Shown here one piece after another: positions 2,611 to 21,412 of a DNA stretch of 64,000 bases. Numbering within the stretch: the stretch's first letter is position 1; each line of letters opens with the position of its first letter. The stretch lies in assembly GCA_963737655.1 (NCBI GenBank), contig CAVTTN010000002.1, positions 5,984,001 to 6,048,000 on the forward strand. Reading direction: 5' to 3'. The position numbers and the translations under genes were made by a program. Source of the DNA: an uncultured Planctomycetota bacterium. GTDB lineage: Bacteria; Planctomycetota; Planctomycetia; Isosphaerales; Isosphaeraceae. The notes below the pieces were generated by a model. It was not told where the DNA came from. It did no database searches and saw only the letters and a program-made list of their open reading frames with translations.

Positions 2611-3797
2611 ATGGAAACCCCCCGCCCCGCCCCGCCGAAGCGGTCTCGCATCGGATCAGCGCTCGTCCCGCTCGCCCTCGCGGCCCTCGCGACGGGGTGC
2701 GGCGGCTCGTCGGAGGGCCCGAAGTCGGCCAAGGACGGTAGTCCGACGCCGGTGAAGGTCGCCTATTTGGGCCTCACCTGCGAGGCCGCCATGTTCGTCG
2801 CTCAGGAGAAGGGGTTCTTCAAGGACGAGGGGCTCGACGTCGAGTTCGTGAAGACCGACTGGGACGGACTGCGCGACGGCCTCGGCCTCGGCCGTTTCGA
2901 CGCCAATTACACGCTGATCATGTACCTGTTGAAGCCGATCGAGCAGGGCCTGGACGTGAAGATCACCGGCGGGGTCCATTCGGGATGCCTCCGCGTGCAG
3001 GTCGGCGCGAAGTCGGACATCAAGTCCCCCGAGGACCTCAAGGGGAAGAAGATCGGCATCCCCACGATGGGCAGCCCGCCGTTCCTCTTCGCCAGCCGCG
3101 TGCTCGCCGCGAAGGGGCTCGACCCGCGGAAGGACGTCGCCTGGGTCGTCGTCGCGCCCGAGGTCATGGGCCTGGCGCTGGACAAGGGGCAGGTCGACGC
3201 GGTGGCCGATTCCGAACCGCTGGGCTCGATCCTCACGGCCAAATCGGGAGTCCGCACGATCGCCGACCAGGCCGTCGACGCGCCGTACAGGGACGAATAC
3301 TGCTGCGCGACCGTCGTGAGCGGCAAGTTCGCGTCGAGGGACCCGGCCGGCGCCGCGAAGGTGACGCGGGCCTTGCTGAGGGGCGCCCGGTGGGTCGAGG
3401 AGAACCCGACGGCCGCGGCGAAGCTGGCGGTCGAGAAGAAGTACGTCGCCTCCTCGGCCGAACTCAACGCGCAGGCGATCGGCAAACTGCATTACATGCC
3501 GGGCGTCTCGCGCTGCCGAGAGAGCATCGGGCTGGCCGCGAAGGAGATGAAGGCGGCCGGGCTGCTCAACCCCTCGACGGATCCGGCCGAGCTTGCCAAG
3601 CGGGCCTGGATCGACCTGGAAGGCGTCGATGATGACTGGATCAAGGGCCTCCAGGTCGAAAAGGTCGCCGGGGGAGGCCGACCGGTCGAGATGGATCGCG
3701 TGGCGTTGGCCGCGCTCCTGCGCGCGAGAAGGACTCCCATTTCATGTGCTGCGCCGGCTGCGGCGCGGCGAAGGACGGCGAGCTGTGCGGACGATAG
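2611..3797 (+). CDS. NitT/TauT (SsuA-like) ABC substrate-binding lipoprotein with Cys-rich motifs (probable frameshift near 3725)
   Basis: GGAGG RBS; lipobox LATGC; AQEKGFFKDEGLDVEFV, DLKGKKIG and GQVDA motifs; alternative frame ends HFMCCAGCGAAKDGELCGR-TAG at 3797. Confidence 0.85.
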
Positions 3798-4812
3798 GCA
3801 CGACGAACCTCCGCGACGAGGGGCCGGCGGCCTTGCCCCTCGCCGCGGGCCCGGGGGGCGGGACGCGCCCGGCCGCCTGGGCGGTCCGCCTCGCGCCGAC
3901 CGCGGCGGCGGTCTCGGCGCTGGCGGCCCATCGGCTCCTCCCGGACGGGCAATCCTCGCCGCCGTCGCAACTCTATCCGGGCCTGCTCGTCGTCCTCCTG
4001 GTCGCGGGCCTGGGGTTCGCGGCCTTGCCGGGCGCTCGCGGACGCCTCGCCTCGTGGCTGCGACATCGAAGCCCGCTGTTCGCCGGCATCATCGTTTGGC
4101 TCGCGACCTGGGACCTCATGACCCTCAAGCTGGCCTGGTTGCCCCTGCCGTACTTCCCCGACCCCGACCGAGTGCTGATGGCGATGTGGGAGGACCGCGG
4201 CGACCTGGCGTGGAGCGCGTTCCACTCGCTGAAGCTGCTGTTCTCGGGCTATGCGTGCGGCGTGGCGGCGGGGCTGGTGTGCGGCGTCCTGATCGGGTGG
4301 TTCCGGCCGATCCGGTACTGGGGGATGCCGCTGTTGAAGTTCGTCGGTCCGATCCCGGCCACGGCGTATGTGCCGCTGATGATGGCGCTCTTCCCGAGCG
4401 GGTTCCTCTCCGGCTCGGCCCTGATCGCAGTGGCGGTGTGGTTCCCGGTGACGATGCTCACGACCTCGGGCATGGCGAACGTGCCGGTGTCGTACCTGGA
4501 CGTCGCGCGGACCCTGGGCGCGGGCGCGGCTACCTGATCTTCCGCGTCGCCTTGCCGTCGGCGTTGCCGAGCATCTTCCTCGGCCTCTTCATGGGCCTCG
4601 GCTCGGCGTTCCTGACGCTCATCGTGGCCGAGACGATGGGCGTGCCGGCCGGGCTGGGGTGGTATCTCAAGTGGAAGCAGGGCTATCTCGAATATGCCCA
4701 CGTCTACGGGGCGCTGATCGTCATGGCGGCCTTCTTCTCGGGCCTCATGACGCTCCTCTTCGGGGCCCGCGACCGGGTCCTCGGCTGGCAGAAGGGCGTG
4801 ATCCGGTGGTAA
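3785..4812 (+). CDS. NitT/TauT ABC permease (frameshift near 4525)
   Basis: LPYFPDP, GPIPATAYVP and LDVARTLGA, then YLIFRVALPSALPSIFLGL...LIVAETMGVPAGLGW in the next frame. Confidence 0.85.
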
Positions 4813-5638
4813 GCGCGATCGACCTCGACTCGTCGAGCCTGCACGTCCGAGAGGTCTCCCGATCCTTCCGCGCGGAGGACGGCTCGACGGTCCTGGCGCT
4901 CGACCGCCTGTCGCTCTCGGTCGCCCCGGGCGAGATGGTGGCCCTCGTGGGCCCGAGCGGGTGCGGCAAGTCCACCCTCCTGCGGCTGATCGCCGGCCTG
5001 GATCGGCCCTCGTCGGGCGAGCTGCGGATCGGCTCGGAGCCGATCGCCGGCCCGAGCGCCGAGCGCGGGCTGATGTTCCAGGACCCGACGCTCTTCCCCT
5101 GGGCGACGGTCCGGCGTAACGTGGAGGCGGGCCTCGTCGCGCGGGGCGTCCTGCGCCAGGGTCGCGGCGAGGTCGAGGAGTATCTCAGGCTCGTCGGCCT
5201 GGACGCCTTCGCCGACGCCTATCCGCACCAGCTCTCCGGCGGCATGGCGCAGAGGGCGGCCCTGGCCCGGGCGCTCATCAACCACCCGAAGGTCCTGCTG
5301 CTGGACGAGCCCTCGGCGCCCTCGATCAATTTACCCGGATGCGGATGCAGGACGAGGTGATCCGGCTCTGGCAGGCGCGGAAGACGACGATGGTGCTGGT
5401 CACGCACGACATCGACGAGGCGCTCTACATGAGCGACCGCATCGTGATGATGACCCCGCGGCCGGGGCGGATCGACCGGGTCCTCGACGTCCCGCTCGAA
5501 CGGCCGAGGCATCGCAACGACCCCCGGTTCCTCCGCCTCCGCGCCCAGATCCTCGACGACCTCCACTTCTCCGGCGGAAGAGCCGCGGCCCCCATCGACG
5601 CCGGGGCCCACGCCCCGGACGCGGGCGGTGCGTCATGA
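4806..5638 (+). CDS. NitT/TauT ABC ATP-binding protein (frameshift near 5312)
   Basis: Walker A GPSGCGKST, LSGGMAQR, LLLDEP, VTHDIDEA, PRPGRI. Confidence 0.9.
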
Positions 5639-8600
5639 CCCGGGCCCGACGGATGCTGTTCCTCGTCGTCGGGCTGCCCCTGGCGATCCTCGCCGTCGGC
5701 GGGACGGCCCTCCTGATCTGGTGGGCGACTCGTTCGAGGCTGCCCGCTCCGGGCTCGCCACGTTACGAGGAGATGGTCTCGGCCTTCTCCTCGGGCGTCG
5801 CGGCCCTCGACTCGGACGCGAACCCGATCGCTCGCGACGCGCTGGACCGGGCCGTCGGGATCGTGCCCGAGGAGCCGGCGGCCTGGGCGAACCTGGGCCT
5901 GGCGCTGCTCCGCCTCAACGACCTCGAAGCGTCCGCGAAGGCGATGGAAGAGGCCCGCAAGCTCGCCCCCGACAGCGGAGCCGTCGAGCACCTTTCGGCA
6001 CTCCTCGAGGAGCGCCGCGGCGACTTCGACAGGGTCGTGACGCACCTGAAACGGGCGATCGATCTGGACCCGAAAGCCCTCCGGTCCCGCTACGCTCTCG
6101 TCAAGGAATACGAGCGCCAGGGGCAGGCCGAGGCCGAGGCCCTCCGGCTGCTGGCGGAGATCGTGGAGCTGGCCCCGAGCAACCTCGCCGCGCAGATCGA
6201 CCGGGCCCGCCTGGCGGCCAAGTCGGGCGACGCCGAGTCGCTCCGGGCGGCGATCCGGGGCCTGAGCGGCCAGTCGGCCTCCTGGCCCGAGAGGGCCCGC
6301 GAGCAGTTCGCGTCCGTGGAGAAGGCCATCGCCGAGAAGAACCCGAGGCTCGCCACGTCACGCGTGCTGGGCCTCCGCAACCTGCTCGTGACCGTCCCCG
6401 CCTTCCGCCAGGGGAGCGACGCCCTGGAACTCCCGGCCGGCACCGTGGGCGCGCCGATCCCCCGGTTCCTGCGCATGCCGAACCCCTCTCCAACTCCCGC
6501 GCCGCCGGATCGGTCGGTCGCGTTCGCCTTCAGTCCCCCGGGCAAGGACGCGGCGAGGAGGGCGGACGCCGTCTTCCTGCTCATCGACCCCAAGGATGGT
6601 GCGGTGACGCTCCTCGAAGCCGACGGCCGCGAGCTTCGCAGGGCCGGCGGCTCGGGCACCATCGCCCCGTTCCCCGGCGGGGGGGACGCGAAACCGCCGA
6701 CGCCCCACGGCGTCGCCGTGGCCGACTGGAATTCGGACTATCGGCCCGACCTCGTCCTCGCCGGCGCCGGGGGTGTCCGGTTCCTGAAGCAGGAGGAGGA
6801 CGGCTCGTTCACCGACGTGACCGCCGCCACGAAGCTGGGGCCGGAGATCCTCGGGACGAACGCCTCGGGCATCTGGGCCGCGGACATCGAGATGGACGGC
6901 GATCTCGACTTCGTGGTCGGCGTGCGTGACGGGGCGACGCGGGTACTCGTCAATCGGGGCGACGGCACCTTCGCGTCGGACGAGTCCCGATTCAAACAGT
7001 GCAAGGATATGCACAATTTCGCGTGGTCCGACCTGGACGGAGACGGCGACCCCGACGCGGCGATGGTCGAGGGGACCGGCCCCGCCGGCTTCTCGAAGCT
7101 GCGCGTGTTCATGAACGAGCGGGCCGGCCGGTTCGTGGAAAGGGAAGTGCCCCAGGAGATCGAAGGCGTCCGAGACCTCGCCGTGGGCGACGCGGACGGC
7201 GACGGCCTGATGGACCTGCTCCTCCTGACGTGGTCCACGGTCCTGCGACTCTCCGATCGCGAGGGCGGCCGATCCTGGGATTTCGCGGAGCTGTTCCGGA
7301 GGCCGGGCCCGAAGGACGGCGGCGGGGATCGCCTCCTGGTCGCGGATCTGGACAACAATGGCGCGATCGATCTGATCCTCTCGTCACGAGAACTCGCCAC
7401 GGAGGCTCTGGCTCGGCGGGCGGCCGGGCGATCCCTGGGTCCGCGCGGCCGGTGCGATGGAGTCGCTGGCGCCGTTCCAGGTCTTCGGGATCGCCGACGC
7501 GAACCGCGACGGACGTCTCGACGTCGCGGGGACCGTGAGCAACGGCGTCGCGGGCCCGACGGTCTCCCTCGGCACCAACAGCGGGAAGGCGTCGTATGGC
7601 TGGCTCGACGTCCGCCCCCGCGCCGCGAAGAGCGTGGGGGACGGCCGCATCAACTCCTTCGGCCTCGGCGGCGAGATCCAGGTCCGCGCGGGCCTGCTCG
7701 TCCAGAAGCAGGTGATCGCCGGCCCGGTGGTCCACTTCGGCCTCGGCACCCACAACGGGGCCGACGTCGCCCGCGTGGTCTGGCCGAACGGCACGGCGCA
7801 GGCCGAGTTCAACACGAAAGCGAATGTCGCGATCGCCGCCGAGCAGAGGCTCAAGGGCTCGTGCCCCTTCATCTATGCCTTCGACGGGTCGGAGATCCGC
7901 TTCGTCACCGATTTCCTCTGGCGCTCGCCCCTGGGGCTGCGGATCAACGCGCAGGACACGGCGGGAGTCGGCCAGACGGAGGACTGGATCAAGATCCGAG
8001 GCGACCAGCTCGCCCCGCGCGAGGGGAATTACGACCTCCGCATGACCGCCGAGCTGTGGGAGACCCATTTCTGGGACCACGTCTCGCTGATGGTCGTCGA
8101 TCACCCCAGTGGCACCGAAGTGTTCGTCGACGAGCGGTTCGCCCGCAAGCCGCCGACGCTGAAGGTCCACGCCACGGGGCGCGTCCGCCCGGTGAAGAGC
8201 GCTCGCGACGATCGGGGAGACGACGTCCATGACGTCGTCCGCGCGGGACGGCCGCTATCTCGACACCTTCGGCCGGGGCTTCTATCAGGGCGTCACGCGT
8301 GATCACTGGGTCGAGGTCGAGATCGGCGAGGACGTGCCGAGGGACCGGAAGCTCGTCCTCGTCGCCGAGGGCTGGATTCACCCGACCGATAGCTCGATCA
8401 ACGTGGCGCTTGGTCAGGGGACTCATGAGCCGCCGAGGGGGCTAAGCCTGGAGGCCCCGACGGCAGACGGCCAATGGGCCGTGGTTCGCGACCACCTGGG
8501 GTTCCCGGCCGGCAAGAACAAGACCGTTCTCATCGACCTGGACGGCGTGTTCCGGTCCGATGCCCCGCGCAAGCTCCGCCTGAGGACGAATCTGGAGGTC

Positions 8601-9164
8601 TATTGGGACGCACTCTCGGTCGCGACGGCCGAGGACGGGGCACCCCTCAAGATCCGCCGCATAGCCCCGGCGACGGCCGACCTGCGCCATCGCGGCTATT
8701 CGCGGATGACGCAGGCGGATGCCGGCTCGCCGGAAACCCCTCGCTACGATATCCTGGACGGGGGGCGCCAGCGCTGGAATGACCTGATCGGGTTCTACAC
8801 CCGGTTCGGCGACGTCCGCGAGCTTCTGGAGCGGGTCGACGACCGCTACGTGATCGCCAACGCCGGGGACGAGGTCCGGCTCCTCTTCCCCGCCGCGGAC
8901 CCTCCGCCGCCGGGATGGACGCGCGACTTCGTCCTGATCGGCGACGGCTGGAACAAGGATGGCGACTACAATACGGCGTTCTCGAAGACCGTCCTGCCCC
9001 TGCCGTCCCACGCGCGACCGAATTACGACACGCCTCCGGGCGAGCTGGAAGACGACCCCGTCTATCGGGACCATCCGGACGACTGGCAGCAGTATCACAC
9101 CCGTTACGTCACACCGCACGTCTTCCGCGACGGGCTGAAGCCCCGGGCGGTCGCGAAACCATAG
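5635..9164 (+). CDS. Membrane-anchored TPR + FG-GAP + ASPIC/UnbV (CRTAC1-like) protein with C-terminal extension (frameshifts near 7400 and 8230)
   Basis: N-terminal TM; TPR (AAWANLGLALLRL); repeated DxDxDGxxD loops; HFGLG...VVWPNG; KGSCPF motif; joins ORFs 5635, 7457 and 8229. Confidence 0.8.
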
Positions 9165-9184: not shown

Positions 9185-10984
9185 ATGCTCGGGGCCAAGG
9201 CCGGACGGATCGCCGCGATCCTCCTGTTCGTCGGGCTGATCGGCGCGACCCTGGTGCTGAATCGCTCGTCGCCGTCGTCGGGGGGGGCGAAGCCGTCCCC
9301 CTCGGGGTCGAAGTCCGAAGGGCCCTCGCGCTACGGCTTCCGCCTGGAAGAGGTGTCGAAGGCGTCGGGGATCGACTTCGTCCACAAGGCCCCCACGCTC
9401 GACGCCAAGCTCGCGCACATCATGCCGCAGATCGCCTCGATGGGCGCGGGGGTCTCGGCGGTCGACTTCGACCGCGACGGCTGGCAGGACCTCTACGTCA
9501 CCAACAGCGGCGAGGGGAGCTTCAACCGGCTCTATCGCAACAGGAAGGACGGCACGTTCGAGGACGTCGCCGGCCCCCTCGGCGTGGCCGACGTCAACAA
9601 GGAGGGGACCGGCGTCTCGATGGGCTCGGTCTGGGGCGACTACGACAACGACGGCTATGAAGACCTGTTCCTCTACAAGTGGGGCCGCCCCGAACTCTTC
9701 CACAACGACGGCGGCAAGGCGTTCACCCGCCAGACCGAATCCGCCGGCCTCCCCGCGTGGGTCAACGCCGGGTGCGCGACGTGGCTCGACTTCGACCGCG
9801 ACGGCCGGCTCGACCTCTTCCTCGGCGGCTACTGGGCCGACGACCTCGACCTCTGGCACCTCAAGACGACGAAGATGATGCCGGAGAGCTTCGAGTATGC
9901 GAAGAACGGCGGGCGCAAATACCTCTTCCGCAACGTCGGCGACGGCCGATTCGAGGACGCGGCCAAAACGACCGGCCTGGAGAGCCGCGCTGGGCGCTGT
10001 GCGCGGCGGCGGCCGATCTGCGAGGGACCGGCTTCCCCGACCTGGTCGTCGCCAACGACTACGGCGTCTCGGAACTCTTCGCGAATGAGGGCGGGAAGCG
10101 ATTCCGCGAGATCGGCAACGCGACGGGGGTCGGCTTCGCGCCCAAGAGCGGCATGAACGTCAGCTTCGGCGACATCTTCAACCAGGGCCGGTTCTCGATC
10201 TACGTGACGAACATCTCCGAGGAGGGCGTCCTGATCCAGGGGAACAACCTCTGGGTCCCTCGCGAGGGGACGAAGGGGGACGGCCTCAAGTACGACAACC
10301 TGGCGCGCGAGACGGGCGTCGAGCTCGGCGGCTGGAGCTTCGGCGCCCAGTTCGGCGACCTGAACAACGACGGCACGCAGGATCTCGTGCTCACCAATGG
10401 TTATATCTCGGATGCGAAGGATGCCAGCTACTGGTATGACTACTCGGTGATCGCCGGCGGTCACAGCTCGATCATCTCCGACGCCAAGAACTGGCCGGCG
10501 ATGGGGGACAAGAGCCTCTCGGGCTACCAGGCGAAGCGCGTCTGGATGAACGACGGCGCGGGGCATTTCGCCGACGTGGCGCAGGCCGTCGGCTACACCG
10601 ACCGGCACGACGGCCGGGCCGTGATCCTCGTTGACCTCTGGAACCGCGGCGCGCTCGACCTCGTCGTCGCCAACCAGAAGGGGCCGCTGCTCGTCTACAG
10701 GAACACGGTCGATCCCGCGAACAAGTGGATCGGCTTCGACCTCCGCGGCAAGGCGTCCAACCGCAGCGCCATCGGGGCCGAGGTCCGTCTGTTCTGGGAC
10801 GGGCAGGAGCAGCTGCAGCAGGTCACGGGCGGCGCGGGTACTCGGCGCAGAATCCCCGCCCGCTGCACTTCGGCCTGGGCAAGTCGCCGAAGATGGAGAA
10901 GGCCGTCATCCGCTGGCCGTCCGGCAAGGAACAGGTCATCCCGACGCCCGAATCCGGGCGCGTTCATACGGTGGAGGAGCCCTG

Positions 10985-10985
<1 letters not shown>
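9185..10985 (+). CDS. CRTAC1/ASPIC-UnbV FG-GAP repeat protein (frameshifts near 9985 and 10835)
   Basis: N-terminal hydrophobic anchor; DFDRDGWQDLYVTN and DYDNDGYEDLF repeats; SNRSAIGAEV and GYSAQNPRPLHFGLG...IRWPSG. Confidence 0.85.
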
Positions 10986-11875
<890 letters not shown>

Positions 11876-11924: not shown

Positions 11925-13295
11925 ATGTTGCAGGGCGTGGAGAGGCTGGACGACCTGATCGGGCCGCGGGCGTCGGGGCTCACCGGCGCGACCCTGGACG
12001 AGGTCGCATCGGCCGTGCATCGGGCCGACGTCGATCGGCTCGCGGCGACCGGCGGGCACTTCGCCGCCGTGGCGCACGAGGGGCACACCGTCCGCCTGGC
12101 GAGGACGATGGGGGTGCCCCTGCGCTACTTCGTCGCCAAGCGCCATCACGGCCCCTATCTCGTCGTCTCGGACCGCATCGATCGCCTCTATGAGTATTGC
12201 TGCTCGCTCAAGATCGGCTGGCAGTTCGACCCTCTCTACACGCGGATGATCCCGGCGCACTACCTCGTGGAGGTCGATCAGGTCGGATGCCCCGACCCGA
12301 ATCCCCGGTATCGCCGCTTCTTCTCGCCCGAGGTGGCGCAAGGGCCTCGCGACCTCGACGCGCTCGGCGCCGCCTACGTGCGTGCTGCCTACGAGACGGC
12401 CCGCGACTGGATCGCGCGGGTGCCGGATGGTGAGCCGATCGCCGTGCTCTTCTCGGGAGGCGTGGACAGCGGCTCGGTCTTCCTGCTGGCCCGGAAGGCG
12501 CTCGCCGAACTCGGCCGCGACCCGAACCTGTTGCGGGCCTACTCGCTCGACCTCGGCGGCGGCGAAGACGCGGCCCAGGCCGAGCGCTGGGTGCGCGAGC
12601 TCGGCCTCGAATCGCAGTGGGAGCGGATCGCTCCGGAAGGCGCGAAGCCCGATTACGAGGAGGCGATCGCGACGATCGAGGACTATCACCCGCTCGACGT
12701 CGAATGCGCCGCGGCGTCGCTCCTGCTGCTGAGGGCGATCCGAGAGCGGCATCCCTCGGTGCGTCACCTGCTCGACGGCGACGGCGGAGACGAGAACCTC
12801 AAGTCGTACCCGCTGGAGGATTCGGACCTGACGATCTCCAGCATCCTCCGCAACCCGATGCTCTATCAGGAGGGCTGGGGCATCGACGCGGTCAAGCACA
12901 GCCTGACCTACTCGGGCGGGCTGTCACGCTCCTATATCCGAACATATGCCCCGGCGGAGCGGCTCGGCTTCTCCGCGTTCAGCCCTTATACGACGCGCGC
13001 CGCCATGGCCGGCGCCGTGGCGATCCCGTTCGAGGACCTGCTCGCGGGGGACGCCGGGCGGCTCGCGACGCTCAAGGCCGACGTCGTCCGCGCGGGCGTC
13101 GAGGCCGTCACGGGCGTCCGCATGCCGGTCTTCGCCAAGCGACGGTTCCAGGACGGCGCCGGCGGCGCCTATCGTCAGTGGCGCGTGAGCAAGGCGTGGT
13201 GCCGGCAGGTGTTCCTCCGCCAGTGGGAGGAGCGGCTGAAGGTCGCGTGGTCGCCGTTCGCCGAGCGCGTCTCGGGCAACGCGGTGCCGGTCTGA
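11925..13295 (+). CDS. Asparagine-synthetase-like ATP-dependent amide ligase lacking the N-terminal glutaminase Cys
   Basis: PP-loop LFSGGVDS and DGDGGDE; N-terminus MLQGVERL has no Cys at position 2. Confidence 0.8.
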   Translation: MLQGVERLDDLIGPRASGLTGATLDEVASAVHRADVDRLAATGGHFAAVAHEGHTVRLARTMGVPLRYFVAKRHHGPYLVVSDRIDRLYEYCCSLKIGWQFDPLYTRMIPAHYLVEVDQVGCPDPNPRYRRFFSPEVAQGPRDLDALGAAYVRAAYETARDWIARVPDGEPIAVLFSGGVDSGSVFLLARKALAELGRDPNLLRAYSLDLGGGEDAAQAERWVRELGLESQWERIAPEGAKPDYEEAIATIEDYHPLDVECAAASLLLLRAIRERHPSVRHLLDGDGGDENLKSYPLEDSDLTISSILRNPMLYQEGWGIDAVKHSLTYSGGLSRSYIRTYAPAERLGFSAFSPYTTRAAMAGAVAIPFEDLLAGDAGRLATLKADVVRAGVEAVTGVRMPVFAKRRFQDGAGGAYRQWRVSKAWCRQVFLRQWEERLKVAWSPFAERVSGNAVPV

Positions 13296-13312
13296 ATCGG
13301 GGCCAACCCGCC

Positions 13313-14305
13313 ATGACGATCTATCCCGACGACCCCTCCGCCCGGGATCGCTGGATCCTGGAGCGGAGGCCGCCTCGCAACGCGCTCGACCCCCGGCGCC
13401 CCTACGTGGTCCTCGCGGAGGCCGAGCCCGGCCCGGACGGAAGTGCCGTCGACGTCGCGACGGTCTTCCTCACGAATCGCGAATGCCCCTGGCGCTGCCT
13501 GATGTGCGACCTGTGGAAGAACACCCTGGAGGACACGGTCCCCGAAGGGGCGATCGCCGAGCAGGTCCGATTCGCCATCGAGGGCCTGCCGCAGATCGAG
13601 CCGGCGCGTTCGCACCTGAAGCTCTACAACGCCGGCAGCTTCTTCGATCCCCGCGCGATCCCGCCGGCGGAATACGCCGAGGTCGCCCGGCTCGCCGCCC
13701 CGTTCGCCCGCACGATCGTCGAATGCCACCCCGCGCTCGTCGGGCGACGCTGCGTCGAGTTCCGCGACCGGCTCGCGAAGCCTCTGGAGGTCGCCTTGGG
13801 GCTCGAGACGACGCATCCCGAGGTGCTGCCGCGACTCAACAAGCGGATGACGCTCGACCGCTTCCGCGCCGCGGCCGAGTTCCTCAAGGACCACGACATC
13901 GACCTGCGCGTGTTCATCCTGGTCCGACCCCCGTGGCTATCCGAGGCGGAGGGGGTCGAATGGGCGGGGCGATCCCTGGATTTCGCCTTCGACTGCGGCG
14001 CGTCCGTCTGCTCGCTCATCCCGACGAGGGCGGGCAATGGCGCGATGGAGGCCCTCCGAGAGTCCGGCGACTTCGCCCCGCCGTCGCTCGCCTCGCTGGA
14101 GGCGGCCCTGGAATACGGCCTCTCCCTGCGGGCCGGTCGCGTCTTCGCCGACCTGTGGGACATCCAGTCCCTGGCCCTCTGCCCCTCATGCCGAGCCGCC
14201 CGCATCCGCCGGCTGGCCCGCATGAACGCGACGCAGAGCATCCCCGCCCCGATCGCTTGCCCCGATTGCCGGAGCGCCGACGGGTTGCATCGTCCGGATT
14301 CATGA
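13313..14305 (+). CDS. Radical SAM protein, RaSEA/TIGR01210-like
   Basis: TVFLTNRECPWRCLMC (CxxxCxxC), KLYNAGSFFDP, EVALGLET, RLNK; extra C-terminal CxxC pairs (CPSC, CPDC). Confidence 0.8.
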   Translation: MTIYPDDPSARDRWILERRPPRNALDPRRPYVVLAEAEPGPDGSAVDVATVFLTNRECPWRCLMCDLWKNTLEDTVPEGAIAEQVRFAIEGLPQIEPARSHLKLYNAGSFFDPRAIPPAEYAEVARLAAPFARTIVECHPALVGRRCVEFRDRLAKPLEVALGLETTHPEVLPRLNKRMTLDRFRAAAEFLKDHDIDLRVFILVRPPWLSEAEGVEWAGRSLDFAFDCGASVCSLIPTRAGNGAMEALRESGDFAPPSLASLEAALEYGLSLRAGRVFADLWDIQSLALCPSCRAARIRRLARMNATQSIPAPIACPDCRSADGLHRPDS

Positions 14306-15831: not shown

Positions 15832-18800
15832 TCAGCGGGGCCGGGCGAAGACCTCGGCCGGCAGCTCGGGGAGCGGCCTGGTCCCGACTTCGAGCTCGCG
15901 ACGGAGGATCTGCCATTCGGCGGCCTCCCAGGGCCCCGGGGGCCGGGGGGCCGACTCGAAGCGGTCGCGCCATCGTCGGGCCGAGGGCGCGTCGCCCATG
16001 GCGCGGGCGGCGATCGCCAGGAAGGCCCAGTCCTGGGGCTGGGCGCCCTCCGGGTCGGCCTGGATGCCCTCCAGGAGCCGGTCCGTCGCCTCGCGGTATC
16101 GGCCGTCGCGGACGAGCAGGGCGCCGACGGTGTTGAGGATGCTGTGGCGGCGGCGGCCCTGGTCGCGGGGCGCGGCCCGCAGGGCCCCCTCGGCCAGGGC
16201 GAGCGGCTCGGCGTCATCGGCCCCCGCGCCCGGGGCCAGGGCGCAGGCGAAGGCGGCTTGGTTGGCGTGCATCGTCCCCTCGTGGCCGCGGGCCCCGGCG
16301 AGGATCCGGGCGCAGGCCTCGCGATAGCCCGGGAGGTCGCCGGCCATCAGGGAGGCGACGGCCCGGCGATAGGTGAAGATCGGGGGCGCCGCGGGCCCCG
16401 GCCCTCGACGATCGCCAGGAGCCGCGAGGCGCGGCCCCACCGCCCGGCCGCGACGAGCCGGTCGGCCTGGCGGCCCACCCCGGCGAGGTCCATCCCGAGG
16501 CCGGCGGCCCGCTCCAGGTCGTCGTCGCGGTCGTCGATCCGCCCGGCCTGGCCGCGGACCTCCGCCCTCTCGGCCAGGGCCCTCCAATCGCCCGGATGGC
16601 CGGCCAGGAGGCGGTCGAGATACCAGGTCGCCGACCCCGGACGGCCCGCCCCCGCGCCTCGGCCGCCCGGGTCCGTTCCCAGTCGCTGAGGGCCTCCGAA
16701 GGCGCGATCCGGGCGGCCCGGTCGAGGGCGGCCTCGGCCTCGTCCCGTCTCCCGTCGCGTTCCAGGGCCGTCGCCCGCCGCGCCTCGACGGCCCAGTCGC
16801 CGGGCCGCAGGGGGGCGAGGCGGTCGAGGTGCCAGAGGGCGGCGAAGGTGAGGCCCTCGGCCTCGGCGGAGTCCAGGGCCAGGGCATGGCGCCGGGCGGC
16901 CCGCTCGGGGGATTCCTCGGGGTCCGGGACGGGCGCGAGCCGGTCCCTCTCGGCCCAGGACGAGGCCGCCATCGGGACGACCGATCCGATCGACGGGTCC
17001 AGGGTCGCCCCGGTGGCCAGGGCCAGGGCGTCGGACGTCTCCTCGGGGCCCGGCTCGGGGCCGGGCTCGGGCAGGGGCCAGGACCGGACGATCAGGCCCT
17101 CGCCGGCCCCGAGGATCGACGCGCCGTCCCGGGAGAAGGCCAGCGCCTGGAGGGGGCCCTCGGCGACCAGGGGAGGGCCGACCGGCGCGAACGTGGCCGC
17201 GTCGTGGAGCCGCCCCCGGCCGTCGTCGCCGAGCAGGGCCAACCATCGGGCCGACGGGTCCGCGACCAGGGCGGCGAGTCCCCGGGCCTCGGGGATCACC
17301 AGCCGGAGCGGCTTGCCGGCCCGCACGTCCCACTCCCAGACCCCCCCGGGGCCCTTCGTCAGGAGCCGGTCTCCGGGCAGGAAGGCCACGGCCCCGGGGT
17401 TCTGGGCCGGGATGGCCAGGGGGACGCCCCGGGGCCGCAGCGGGTCCAGGTCCCAGAGCTGATAGCGCCCGAAGTCGGCGCCTTCGAGCGTCCCCATCGA
17501 CCGGACCAGCAAGGTCCGACCGTCCGGGCTGAATCGCGTCCAGGTCGCGAAGCCCTGGACGTCCGCCGAGTCCCGGAGCCGGCCCGACTTCGCCTCGTAG
17601 AGCCGGATCTGGGAGCGATGCGGGTCGCGAGGCTCGTCCTTCAGAGTGCCGACGGCCAGGGTCGAGTCGTCGGGCGAGAAGGAGACCGACATCCCCCGGG
17701 CCCGAGGGCCAGCGGGGCGCCGGCCATCCGGCCGTCGGAGGCGTCGAGCCGGAAGAGGGCGCCGCCGAAGCCGGTGGCCGCCAGGGCCTTGCCGTCGTGA
17801 GAGAAGCCCATCGACAGGATCCAGTTGGGACGGGGCACGCCCGGGCCTACCGCGCGGCCCCGGGCGTCGTGGAGCCGGAGCTCGGCCGAGACGCTCAGGT
17901 CGTCGCGGGAGGCCGTCGCCCAGGTCGGCCCGCTCGGCCCGGCCGCCAGCAGGACGCCGCCGCCGGGCCACCCCAGGGGGATCGGGGCGCCGATCGGCCG
18001 TCCGTCCGCGGAGACGGCCTGGGCGAAGCCCGCGGCCGGGTCGGTGACCAGGGCCCGGTCCGACCCCGGCGCGAAGACCGCCTGGCCCACTCGGCCCGGC
18101 CTCATCGGCGCCGGGATCGGCCGGTCCGGGAGCCTCCAGAGCCGGAACGACCCCTCGATCAGGACGCCCAAATCGCGGCCGTCGGGGCGGAAGGCCAGGT
18201 CGGTGACCGGGCCGGGCTCGGCCAGGAGCTCGGCCCGGGCCGCGCCGTCCCGGACGTCCCGGAAGATCACCCGGCCGTCGTTGGACCCCGTGGCCAGGGT
18301 GGCCCCGTCGGGGTGGAAGGCCAGGGCCGTGACGAACCCGCCCCCGGTCCGGACCGGGCCCCGGGCGGCCCCTCGGCGGCAGTCGTAGAGGCCGACGTCG
18401 CCCGAGTGGTGGACGATCGCCAGGGTCTCGCCGTCGGGGCCGAGGAGGTGGCTGGCGGGGCGGTTCACGAGCCCGGGCAGGCCGGTCAGGGACGCCTTGA
18501 GTCCGCCCGAGGCGTCCCAGAAGTCGAGGACCCAGTCGGTGGTCGGGTCGTCCGGCCGGAGCCGGCCGGGGGACATCGTGGCGACGCCTCCCCGGCCGTC
18601 GAAGACGGCGAAGGCGGCCCCGGCCGGCATCCCGGGGGCGGCGCCCCGAGGCTCCCCCGAGGCCACGTCCCAGAACCGGGCGCCCCCGGGGCCGATCGTC
18701 AGGGCGACCCGCCCGCCCGGCCCGACGGCCACCGCCTTCACGGCTCCGGCCCGGATCGGGGGCCCCAGGGGCCGGCCCGTCCCCCGGTCCCGGACCACGA

Positions 18801-20730
18801 CCGTCCCGTCGGGCTCGGCCCGGGCCAGGGCCTCCCCGTCGGGCGAGGCCGAGAGGTCCCAACGGTGGAGCGACCCGTCCCGACCGGCGACCGGGGCGCC
18901 GGTGGCCAGGTCGAAGGCCCTCGGGCCGTGTTCGGCGGAGTCGATGGTGATCGTCGAGGGGTCGGGGCCGAACTCGAGGTGCCGGGCGGTCCCCAGGTCG
19001 GGGAGGACCCGGAGGAGCCGGGGGGCGGAGGCGGCCCAGGCGGCCAGGTTCAGCCGGGCCAGGCGTCGCGAGTCCGGGGCCATCTCGGGGGTCTCCAGGC
19101 TCCGGGCCAGCCACAGACGGCCCGCCACCGTCTCCCCGCGGTCGAGGAACCCCAGGGCCCGGTCCAGCGTCAGGTCGGCGGCCGTCCGCCTGGCCTCGCG
19201 GCGGGCCTCGACGGCCTCGGCCGTCCGTCGGGTCGCCTCTCGCCACTTCCAGACCGTCAGGCCGAAGCCGACGAGGATCGCCAGGACCACCGAGGCGGCC
19301 AGGCCCGAGACCGTCGGCTCGCGGCGGACCCAGCGCGCGGCCCTCTCGGCCAGCCCCAACCTCCGGGCCCGGATCGGCTCGCCCGCGAGGTAGAGCCTGA
19401 GGTCCTCGGCCATCTCGCCGGCCGAGGCGTACCGGGCCGAGGGGGCCTTGGCCATCGCCTTCAGGGCGACGGTCTCCAGGTCCCGGGGGACCCGGCGGTC
19501 GATCGACCGGGGCCAGGGCGGCTCCTCGCGGAGGACTTTCTCGATCAGGCGGGCCCGGTTGGGCTCGTCGAACAGGGGGCGCGAGGTCAGCAGCTCGTAC
19601 AGGGTCACGCCCAGGGCGTAGACGTCGCCCCGGACGTCGGACCGGCCGTCGAACCGCTCCGGGGCCATGTAGCGGAGGGTGCCGACGATGTCGCCGGTGC
19701 GGGTCAGGGCCTCGCCGTCGCCGTCGAACGACTTGGCCAGGCCGAAGTCGGCCACCCAGGCGTCTCCCCGGTCGTCGATCAGGACGTTCGAGGGCTTCAC
19801 GTCGCGGTGGAGGATGCCCTGGCGGTGGGCGTAGTCCAGGGCCTGGGCGACCTGGAGGGCTACCCTCGCCGCCTCCCGGAACCGATCCCGGCCGGGATCG
19901 GTTCCGGGAGGCGGCGACGGCTCGGGCCCGGGCGGGGCGGGCGCCGGTCCCTCGGCCGGGAGGCCGGGCCCGGGGGGAGCGGCGAGCGTCGCGTCGGCGT
20001 CGAGCTCCAGGGTCGGAGGGCCGTCGGACGGCCCGGGCCCCGGTCCCGCCGAGACCGTCGCGCCGTCGGTCGGCCTCGGCCCCCAGCCACGGCGGGAGAC
20101 GGCGTCCAGCCCTTCGCCTTCGATGAATTGCATGGCGTAGAAGAGGTAGGGCGCGGCCTCCCCCACGCCGAAGACCGGGACGATGTTCGTGTGGTGCAGG
20201 CGGGCCGCGGCCCGGGCCTCGCGCCGGAACCGCTCGGCCTCCGGGGCGTGCGTCCCGGCCGGGGGGGCGATGACCTTCAGGGCGACCCGTCGGTCCAGGG
20301 CGATCTCCTGGGCCTCGTACACGACCCCCATCCCGCCCCGCCCCACCTCTCGGACGATCCGGAATCCCGGGATCGCCGGCCGGGAGCCCGCCGGGAGGGC
20401 CGGGGCCCGACCGTCCCCGGTGGTGGCGTCGGTCGAGTGCGGGGGCGACGAGGAGGTCCGGGGCGGCCCCATCCGCTTCAGGAGGTCGAGATAGGGCGCC
20501 GGCGGGGCCTGGTCGTCGCGACCGGTCGGGACTCCGGCGTCGGCCAGCCCCTCCAGGCCGGCGCGGCAGGCCCGGCAGCCCGCGACGTGGGCCTCGACGG
20601 CCTCGGCCTCGGCCCCCTCCAGCCGGTCGTCCAGGTATCGGGCCAGGTGGGCCGACGGGTAGCAGCCGGGCGCCGAGGGGTCGGACGGCTCCGGGGCCGG
20701 GCGGTCGGGCCCGCCGTGGGTCGGGGTCAT
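15832..20730 (-). CDS. Ser/Thr kinase with N-terminal zf-HC2 anti-sigma finger, TM, WD40 repeats and TPRs (frameshifts near 17700 and 16650)
   Basis: HVAGCRAC; GRGGMGVVY, HRDVKPSN, DFG, YMAPE; TM LAASVVLAILVGFGL; AFHPDG/AFRPDG repeats; TPR-like C-terminus. Confidence 0.9.
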
Positions 20731-20800
20731 GGGTGCATTCCTTCCGACGGGCGGAGAGGTCTCGACTCCCCCCAGGAGCAGTCGCCGGGCCGTCGGGGCG

Positions 20801-21412
20801 TCATCCCGCGTCGGCCTCGGCCCCGCCGGGGCGTTCCAGGTCGCGGACCGCCTCCCGGAGCCTCTTCAGGACGTTGCTCTTGGCCTTGAAGACGGCGGCC
20901 ACGGACAGGCCCAGGCGCCCCGCCGCGTCGTCCGCCGCGACGCCGTCCCGGGCGGTCATCCGATAGGCGTCCCAGGTCGTCGCCGAGACCCGGGCGCGGA
21001 CCCGCCGCTCGGCCTCTTCGAGCAATTCCAGGTCGTATTCTTCCTCCAGGCGGCGGGCGAGGTCCTCGCGGGCCTCGACCCCGGCGAGCCCGTCGAAGAA
21101 CTCGCCCCGGCGCGCGGCCCGGTCGCGATCGGCCAGCCAGTCGCGCCAGGCGTTCTCCGTGAGCGTGCGGAGCCAGCCGCGGAAGCTCCGCCCCGGGTCG
21201 TACCGGAACCGTTCCATCTGCCGGGCGAGCTTCATCAGGACGGCCTGGGTGACGTCCTGGGCGTCGGCCTCCTGGAGCCTCCAGGCGCGGCACCAAGCGT
21301 AGATCTTCGGGGCGTAGCGGTCGACGAAATCGGCCCACGCCTCCTGATCCCTGGCCCCCTGGCAGACTCGCCCGAGGAGGCTCGCGTTGGTCCGGGAGGC
21401 GTCATCCAGCAT
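20801..21412 (-). CDS. ECF sigma-70 factor (kinase-associated)
   Basis: TNASLL..., AWADFVDRY, DAQDVTQ, SFRGWLRT, AVFKAKSNV. Confidence 0.9.
   Translation of the reverse strand: MLDDASRTNASLLGRVCQGARDQEAWADFVDRYAPKIYAWCRAWRLQEADAQDVTQAVLMKLARQMERFRYDPGRSFRGWLRTLTENAWRDWLADRDRAARRGEFFDGLAGVEAREDLARRLEEEYDLELLEEAERRVRARVSATTWDAYRMTARDGVAADDAAGRLGLSVAAVFKAKSNVLKRLREAVRDLERPGGAEADAG

Follow-up and report, generated by a model that had tools for sequence, protein, structure and literature searches.

A predicted adenylating ligase and a RaSEA-like radical SAM enzyme form a widespread two-gene module in bacteria

Background

What reaction is performed by a bacterial gene pair in which a relative of asparagine synthetase stands directly before a relative of RaSEA, the radical S-adenosylmethionine (SAM) enzyme of archaeosine synthesis? 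The question is raised by a 64,000-nt stretch of the GC-rich planctomycete assembly GCA_963737655.1 (CAVTTN010000002.1), here called the window; its genome, labelled G000, is 88% complete. The pair consists of two intact open reading frames (ORFs) on the + strand, a putative ligase of 456 aa (11925-13295) and a radical SAM enzyme of 330 aa (13313-14305), with 17 nt between the stop of the ligase and the start of its neighbor. The closest named homologues belong to Isosphaeraceae. In databases, homologues of the ligase are labelled 'asparagine synthase (glutamine-hydrolysing)' and those of the radical SAM enzyme 'archaeosine synthase beta-subunit', and both labels are mistaken.

Two known systems provide a starting point for comparison. 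RaSEA converts preQ0-Lys to G+ (PMC11298593), and MnmL converts cmnm5U to nm5U (bioRxiv 10.64898/2026.05.18.725915). The first-pass annotation of the window had proposed that the pair may be a bacterial counterpart of ArcS and RaSEA, with an amino acid imported by a neighboring permease as the nitrogen donor.

Distribution and linkage of the gene pair

In a scan of GTDB species genomes, at least 584 stretches were found to encode the radical SAM clade, and neighborhoods were counted in the best 80 of them. These 80 loci span Acidobacteriota, Planctomycetota, Verrucomicrobiota, Armatimonadota and Bacteroidota, among others, and are not independent of one another because they are rich in Acidobacteriaceae. 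The ligase gene was present near the radical SAM gene in 77 of the 80 loci, and directly upstream of it in 72 of the 78 whose flanks were long enough. Further samples covered 301 genomes from the phylum and 81 genomes from the family of the window; some counts below refer to all 97 loci. Strong radical SAM matches occurred in 10 genomes of the phylum sample, with weak matches in 7 more. Among 9 loci of the set designated f2, the ligase adjoins the radical SAM gene in 7 and is located on another contig in the remaining two. Within the family of the window 9/81 genomes carry the ligase, and the gene order of the window is repeated in 7 of the 8 other ligase-positive loci, as far as their contigs reach (one duplicates one of the best 80).

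The tight linkage, together with co-retention even on separate contigs, indicates that the ligase and the radical SAM enzyme behave as one unit. Since the halogenase, the E4/E5-like genes and the importer described below depend on lineage, the constant core of the cassette is the ligase and the radical SAM enzyme. This pair is a real, widespread and previously undescribed two-enzyme module; no paper describing the cassette was found in a literature search that covered few subscription journals.

The ligase has lost the glutaminase half of AsnB

Both motifs that the first-pass annotation had reported for the ligase could be located, SGGVDS at residues 177-182 (12453-12470) and GDGGDE at residues 285-290 (12777-12794), and the protein matches PF00733 with 62.8 bits against a cut-off of 21. 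The lack of an N-terminal Cys, also reported there, extends to the whole family, as none of 71 members has it. The NGE motif is likewise found in 0/71 members, compared to 8 of 9 canonical AsnB proteins. A weak profile alignment (probability 79%, E 2e-6), not to be relied on past residue ~300, places residue 1 of the ligase at residue 77 of AsnB, so that the loss goes beyond a single Cys and takes in the first ~76 residues of the glutaminase domain. When superposed on ASNS, AsnB and beta-lactam synthetase, the ligase begins to align at residues 37-44 of those proteins. Because the glutaminase site is missing in 71/71 members, the nitrogen must come from another donor.

The AlphaFold model of the ligase (mean confidence score, pLDDT, 79.8; low for residues 287-333) displays the two-domain fold of AsnB and beta-lactam synthetase, along with the PP-loop SGGxDS and the G[DE]GxDE motif. 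Its Z scores to ASNS (22.3), AsnB (22.2) and beta-lactam synthetase (21.9) are tied, with root mean square deviations of 3.6-4.1 over 362-380 residues, and those to CarA and TsnB9 are 19.0 and 18.0; in a Foldseek search beta-lactam synthetase ranked first (E 4.8e-12). Beta-lactam synthetase and CarA presumably also lack the glutaminase Cys. Despite the common fold and PP-loop, the ligase differs from all of these enzymes in its low identity (12-20%), its truncated N-terminal domain, its own inserts and its near-constant radical SAM partner. Invariant positions of the family include the PP-loop, GGDEN, CPDP (122-125), EGWG, KHS, K405-R-R-F-Q, R335 and R339; a family-specific insert, EGWG..KHS..GG.SR, and the sequence DGDGGDE were also recognized. 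The protein is not a member of the lasso/macrolactam cyclase model NF033561 (19.2 bits, cut-off 300). Taken from motifs and model, the ligase is predicted to be a dedicated adenylating enzyme without an internal ammonia source, which would form an amide through an ATP-dependent acyl-adenylate.

The radical SAM enzyme is RaSEA-like

The radical SAM enzyme carries the CxxxCxxC motif at C58, C62 and C65 (13484-13507) and two C-terminal CxxC pairs at 290/293 and 316/319 (14180-14269). These pairs had been regarded as extra; they are present, but they are not extra because archaeal RaSEA has the same four Cys. C290, C293, C316 and C319 align with the RaSEA positions, which are conserved at 100/100/100/90% in 22 archaeal RaSEA sequences. 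Within the bacterial clade, conservation of the four Cys is 64-75% among divergent members and at least 90% in a 71-row alignment. K103, E137, E165 and K177 are also common to the radical SAM enzyme and RaSEA. The RaSEA-type reference proteins were gathered from metagenomes with a short motif which we presume to be typical of RaSEA, and their archaeal origin is assumed because the six that were scanned pass the TIGR01210 cut-off.

Profile comparisons with hhalign matched the bacterial clade to archaeal RaSEA over its full length (E 3e-43, 298 columns, 24% profile identity). MnmL (E 8e-10) and Elp3 (1.5e-5) matched less well, as did B12-type outgroups (9e-17), which had originally been picked as weak matches of the query. 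A quick tree was built from 22 metagenome RaSEA-type sequences, 28 members of the clade (3 close homologues and 25 chosen at random), 11 from a second group of bacterial enzymes, 3 sequences from plasmids, 7 MnmL, 2 Elp3 and 4 B12-type outgroups. In this tree the cassette clade (support 100) is located on a long branch of its own, not inside the archaeal RaSEA clade but outside a grouping of archaeal RaSEA with other bacterial RaSEA-like enzymes (95), and the whole group has an SH-aLRT support of 97. Searches of the PDB by sequence were empty and disclosed no RaSEA-like structure, fold searches with the radical SAM model gave generic radical SAM barrels only, and the ESM Atlas gave only unnamed clusters for this enzyme and for the C-terminal domain of the giant protein described below. 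From these comparisons the enzyme is best described as RaSEA-like, but not RaSEA, with RaSEA as its nearest characterized relative; clustering with unrelated families, which the first-pass annotation had considered, was not observed.

Other bacterial RaSEA-like genes were encountered in the same work. The second bacterial group scores 177-222 bits on TIGR01210, in part above the cut-off, and has 486 homologues; one member (L012:1028-2287, -) adjoins a dimethylargininase/amidinotransferase-like gene. Plasmid-borne genes (L121:9971-20996; L122:1-19258; L120:7863-9014) have three settings: a Streptomyces cluster with P450, serine hydroxymethyltransferase, GT9, carbamoyltransferase and heptose genes; a Bacillus cluster of acyl-carrier and ketosynthase genes that includes a glutamine-dependent AsnB; and the solvent plasmid of Clostridium acetobutylicum. 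In a single protein of 896 aa (P0373), possibly a read-through, a member of the cassette clade is fused to a CRTAC1/UnbV-like propeller.

Partner genes of the cassette

In the window the pair forms the 3' end of a co-oriented run, whose preceding genes are, in order, an AhpD/CMD gene, an APC permease, a heptad-repeat protein, a NitT/TauT-type ATP-binding cassette (ABC) importer, a giant TPR-propeller protein, a CRTAC1/UnbV-like protein and an RnfD-clan membrane protein. At least 7 frameshifts are distributed over the upstream genes between 41 and 10985 (AhpD, binding protein, permease, ATPase, two in the giant gene and two in the UnbV-like gene). These are probably assembly indels, because the genes are intact in relatives, and both core genes are unaffected.

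Among the best 80 loci a halogenase-like gene is present in 72, and it stands directly downstream of the radical SAM gene in 70 of 78. Its profile matches PltM/CtcP at E 1e-78, with an invariant Lys92 of catalytic type and W253-x-W255, and an orthologue was present in 6/6 f2 genomes searched. As an obligatory third gene it is ruled out for the window's lineage, having been found in 0/81 genomes of the family sample.

The giant membrane-anchored protein (5635-9164, +) combines TPR, FG-GAP and ASPIC/UnbV regions with a C-terminal domain that starts with GSCP and is without family assignment. It is interrupted by two frameshifts in the window and is ~1170 aa long when intact in relatives. A giant protein is encoded near the cassette in 44-45 of the 80 loci. 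The secreted FG-GAP/CRTAC1-like propeller protein (9185-10985, +), in three frames here and intact in relatives, has UnbV-like counterparts in 38-41/80 loci at a threshold of at least 100 bits. The NqrB/RnfD-clan membrane protein (10985-11875, +) is a frequent but optional partner, present in 38/80 loci, with 30% identity (E 1e-8) to proteins annotated as 'enediyne biosynthesis protein'. In the family, close orthologues of it are confined to ligase-positive genomes (8/9, against 0/72 of those without the ligase), with distant homologues in 21 further genomes. As an obligatory member it was rejected, since no E5-like gene was found in 5/5 ligase-positive f2 genomes, in a search without a positive control.

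With an RnfD-clan membrane gene placed after an ASPIC/UnbV propeller gene, the locus resembles the E4/E5 (UnbV/UnbU) pair of the minimal enediyne cassette. The cassette differs from enediyne clusters in that the E4/E5-like pair is optional for the ligase and radical SAM genes and in the lack of a polyketide synthase: none was detected in the window run by library scans, and neither this enzyme nor an iterative PKSE/thioesterase was a recurrent neighbor within 10 kb on either side, the search for PKSE being confined to these neighborhoods. The three accessory genes of the enediyne cassette are described as 'of unknown function' (PMC9992847). The halogenase, propeller and E4/E5-like partners, like the MnmEG/MnmL precedent, add to what the first-pass annotation had seen.

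The ABC importer (2611-5638, +) consists of a binding protein, a permease and an ATPase and is a lineage-specific partner. Two subfamilies of NitT/TauT binding proteins accompany the cassette (window:2611-3750 and L080:12872-13927), and their invariant Cys motifs differ, being TCEA/GCL/YCC in the former and TCxLTCP/SC in the latter. In 9 loci an adjacent gene encodes a small CxxC protein of HMA type whose leader is twin-arginine-like. The Cys-motif binding proteins and the HMA-type protein suggest uptake of a metal or metal chelate.

Upstream of the importer, the small heptad-repeat protein (2096-2494, +; 132 aa, I-L-A-N-Q-E-x repeats) was matched by no family model; we take it to resemble ion-binding coiled coils with Asn at position d. 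It occurs in 5/97 loci, and directly before the binding-protein gene in the 4 from the window's family. The APC amino-acid permease, proposed earlier as the importer of the donor, does lie in the same run (632-2044, +; 10 kb upstream of the pair), but as a part of the system it is ruled out, being near the cassette in only 2/97 loci. AhpD/CMD genes occur in 3 loci and QueC in 1 of 97, and a deazaguanine link was dropped on the latter count.

Several genes around the cassette were observed in passing. A stretch 5-20 kb ahead of the window (L002:1-15479) contains CRISPR-Cas genes that resemble Type I-C (cas3, cas5, cas8, two cas7, cas4, two cas1 and cas2, recognized by eye), along with what is probably a repeat array and with an ORF resembling transposases. 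A deiodinase-family gene (NF038285; L002:19147-19990) shortly precedes the window's operon; it has paralogues elsewhere in G000, and genes of this family also lie near three further cassette loci (L116:15215-16315; L117; L041). Downstream of the cassette (17641-21412, -) are the genes of an extracytoplasmic function (ECF) sigma factor and, after it, of a Ser/Thr kinase with WD40/TPR repeats, a combination that is common in planctomycetes.

Proposed chemistry and alternatives

As a tentative proposal, the pair would carry out ATP-dependent amide ligation followed by radical C-N cleavage in a small-molecule pathway. The ligase would activate a small, probably aromatic, carboxylic acid with ATP and couple it with an amine supplied by an amino acid or a similar donor. 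The radical SAM enzyme would then abstract a hydrogen next to the amide nitrogen and cut the C-N bond of the donor, and the nitrogen would stay behind. A flavin halogenase of the PltM/CtcP type would, in most lineages, halogenate the substrate, while the secreted propeller, E4/E5-like and ABC proteins, to judge from linkage, may act on the product or move it outside the cytoplasm. We infer trimming because RaSEA and MnmL each trim an amino-acid adduct. A related logic without radical chemistry is found in ammosamide biosynthesis, in which Gly and Leu serve as nitrogen donors and trimming is non-radical (PMC12715798).

The closest archaeal parallel is ArcS-RaSEA of Euryarchaeota, in which a homologue of the radical SAM enzyme with the same C-terminal Cys4 is likewise paired with an enzyme of the amine-transferring type. 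The partner is different: here it is an AsnB-fold ATP enzyme, whereas ArcS is related to ArcTGT and adds Lys to preQ0 in a buffer for which no ATP is listed (PMC11298593); in its chemistry the ligase is not an analogue of ArcS. In the bacterial system MnmEG + MnmL (YtqA/YhcC, TIGR01212), glycine is attached and a radical SAM enzyme then leaves an aminomethyl group, which gives a bacterial precedent for the logic; the substrate there is tRNA, the attaching enzyme is another one, and the radical SAM enzyme is only distantly related. A search of G000 for a TIGR01212 member gave none at E 1e-30.

A number of results weigh against the trimming proposal, and several concern the distance from RaSEA. 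The radical SAM enzyme scores 92.2 bits on TIGR01210, under the cut-off of 212.15, and other members of its clade score 52-105 (four) and 117.5 (one), in contrast to 284-455 bits, all above the cut-off, for six RaSEA-type metagenome proteins. Its pocket is changed relative to RaSEA (N106/T, H139/R, R199/K, R239/N, G241/Q), CDLW stands in place of CGY, and neither GAHN nor YRPPWLW is present. The second bacterial group matches RaSEA at E 7e-68 and is therefore nearer to it than the cassette clade is, which weakens the initial reading. The quick tree was not optimal, as a tree constrained to place the clade with MnmL/Elp3 was 15 log units better (P value of the approximately unbiased test, p-AU, 0.73). 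In 41-row trees with equal search effort the grouping with RaSEA was best by 13 units (bp-RELL 0.82, p-AU 0.93), but groupings with MnmL/Elp3 (p-AU 0.14) or the outgroup (0.17) were not rejected. A grouping of the clade with archaea only gave p-AU 0.029 (5000 replicates), a soft value because the constrained search was incomplete. The deep placement of the clade is therefore unproven. Other points concern the pathway itself. No conserved amino-acid transporter accompanies the cassette, the APC permease being near it in 0/80 and 2/97 loci. The halogenase was not found in any of the 81 genomes of the window's family, in a search whose positive control worked, and halogenation is therefore not applicable to the window locus. 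Finally, a plain primary amide can already be made by ordinary AsnB, so that the detour appears needless unless the product differs.

This last point leads to a different possibility within the same small-molecule pathway: the radical SAM enzyme would remodel the product of the ligase by cyclization, desaturation or rearrangement instead of trimming it, and the ligase may, like beta-lactam synthetase and CarA, close a lactam. Both of these Cys-less structural neighbors form intramolecular amides. Such remodeling is conceivable though somewhat doubtful. It would agree with the altered pocket and with the occurrence of other bacterial RaSEA-like genes in natural-product clusters, and it would avoid the duplication of AsnB; yet the fold does not separate AsnB from beta-lactam synthetase, and two characterized relatives, RaSEA and MnmL, both remove the amino-acid skeleton. 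PP-loop enzymes without a glutaminase can also use ammonia, and the ligase could make an amide or a QueC-like nitrile from free ammonia on a specialized acid, with the radical SAM enzyme acting at a separate step. One family locus does have QueC directly downstream of the radical SAM gene (L114:104-790, -), but it is the only one among the 97, and the invariant insert and the CPDP motif would suggest a larger second substrate; this explanation is considered unlikely. The reading as an ordinary ammonia-dependent asparagine synthetase in an incidental neighborhood is extremely improbable. Although PF00733 is passed, E290 and Y295 align with AsnB residues and databases use the name asparagine synthase, the ligase reaches only 46.5 bits on TIGR01536, the model of glutamine-dependent AsnB (cut-off 267.1), three canonical full-length AsnB genes above that cut-off are present elsewhere in G000, and the adjacency to the radical SAM gene is maintained across several phyla. 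The objection that the first-pass annotation had raised against itself on this point was not borne out.

Two further explanations place the substrate in a macromolecule. The pair could modify a protein or build a cofactor for the giant secreted propeller or the E4-like neighbor. A giant protein is indeed encoded by each of the 9 family genomes that have the ligase and each of the 9 f2 genomes that have the radical SAM enzyme; the 9 best giant matches in the family sample come from exactly the 9 ligase-positive genomes, and 20 giants linked to the cassette form one clade (support 100). These relatives are not independent, however, and giant-protein homologues exist in 105/301 genomes of the phylum and 70/81 of the family, mostly without the pair, while two f2 genomes (G042 and G274) keep an f2-type giant without a radical SAM match. 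The rule that the pair implies the giant thus holds in the 18 genomes checked but is a weak test, because the giant is common without the pair. Among 2130 small ORFs of the 97 loci no conserved precursor peptide was found, the recurring ones near the cassette being shadow frames, gene fragments or a metal-binding HMA protein, and the PltM/CtcP type of the halogenase also speaks against a protein target, which is accordingly held to be improbable. As to tRNA or another nucleic acid, RaSEA, MnmL and Elp3 are all tRNA enzymes by their family descriptions, and a bacterial archaeosine-like system might be imagined. Library scans detected no RNA-binding domain in either protein, however, and both families are acidic (median isoelectric points 5.75 and 5.94). 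PF17884, which we take to be the ArcS-type domain, was found in 0/5 cassette genomes (among them the 88% complete G000) but in 3 archaeal controls. The distribution is patchy (9/81 family and 10/301 phylum genomes), and the neighbors are secreted and transport proteins. A role in tRNA is disfavored by the lack of RNA-binding and ArcS-type domains, the acidic proteins and the patchy occurrence, and is regarded as very unlikely.

Significance

Correcting both annotations is useful whatever the product may be, and the soluble core of two bacterial enzymes lends itself to direct tests in E. coli. The pair could serve as a small-molecule model of the type of C-N cleavage performed by RaSEA and could reveal a widespread metabolite of poorly cultured soil phyla. 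A bolder and rather speculative extension is that this would be the first RaSEA-type chemistry outside RNA, in which the ligase loads an amino acid on a small acid, a radical cut-back follows, halogenation takes place in most lineages, and an E4/E5-like surface module with a Cys-rich importer uses or recovers the product. If this were true, it would mean a new signal, chelator or cofactor common to hundreds of soil and aquatic bacteria, and it would offer a handle on the function of E4/E5-type proteins.

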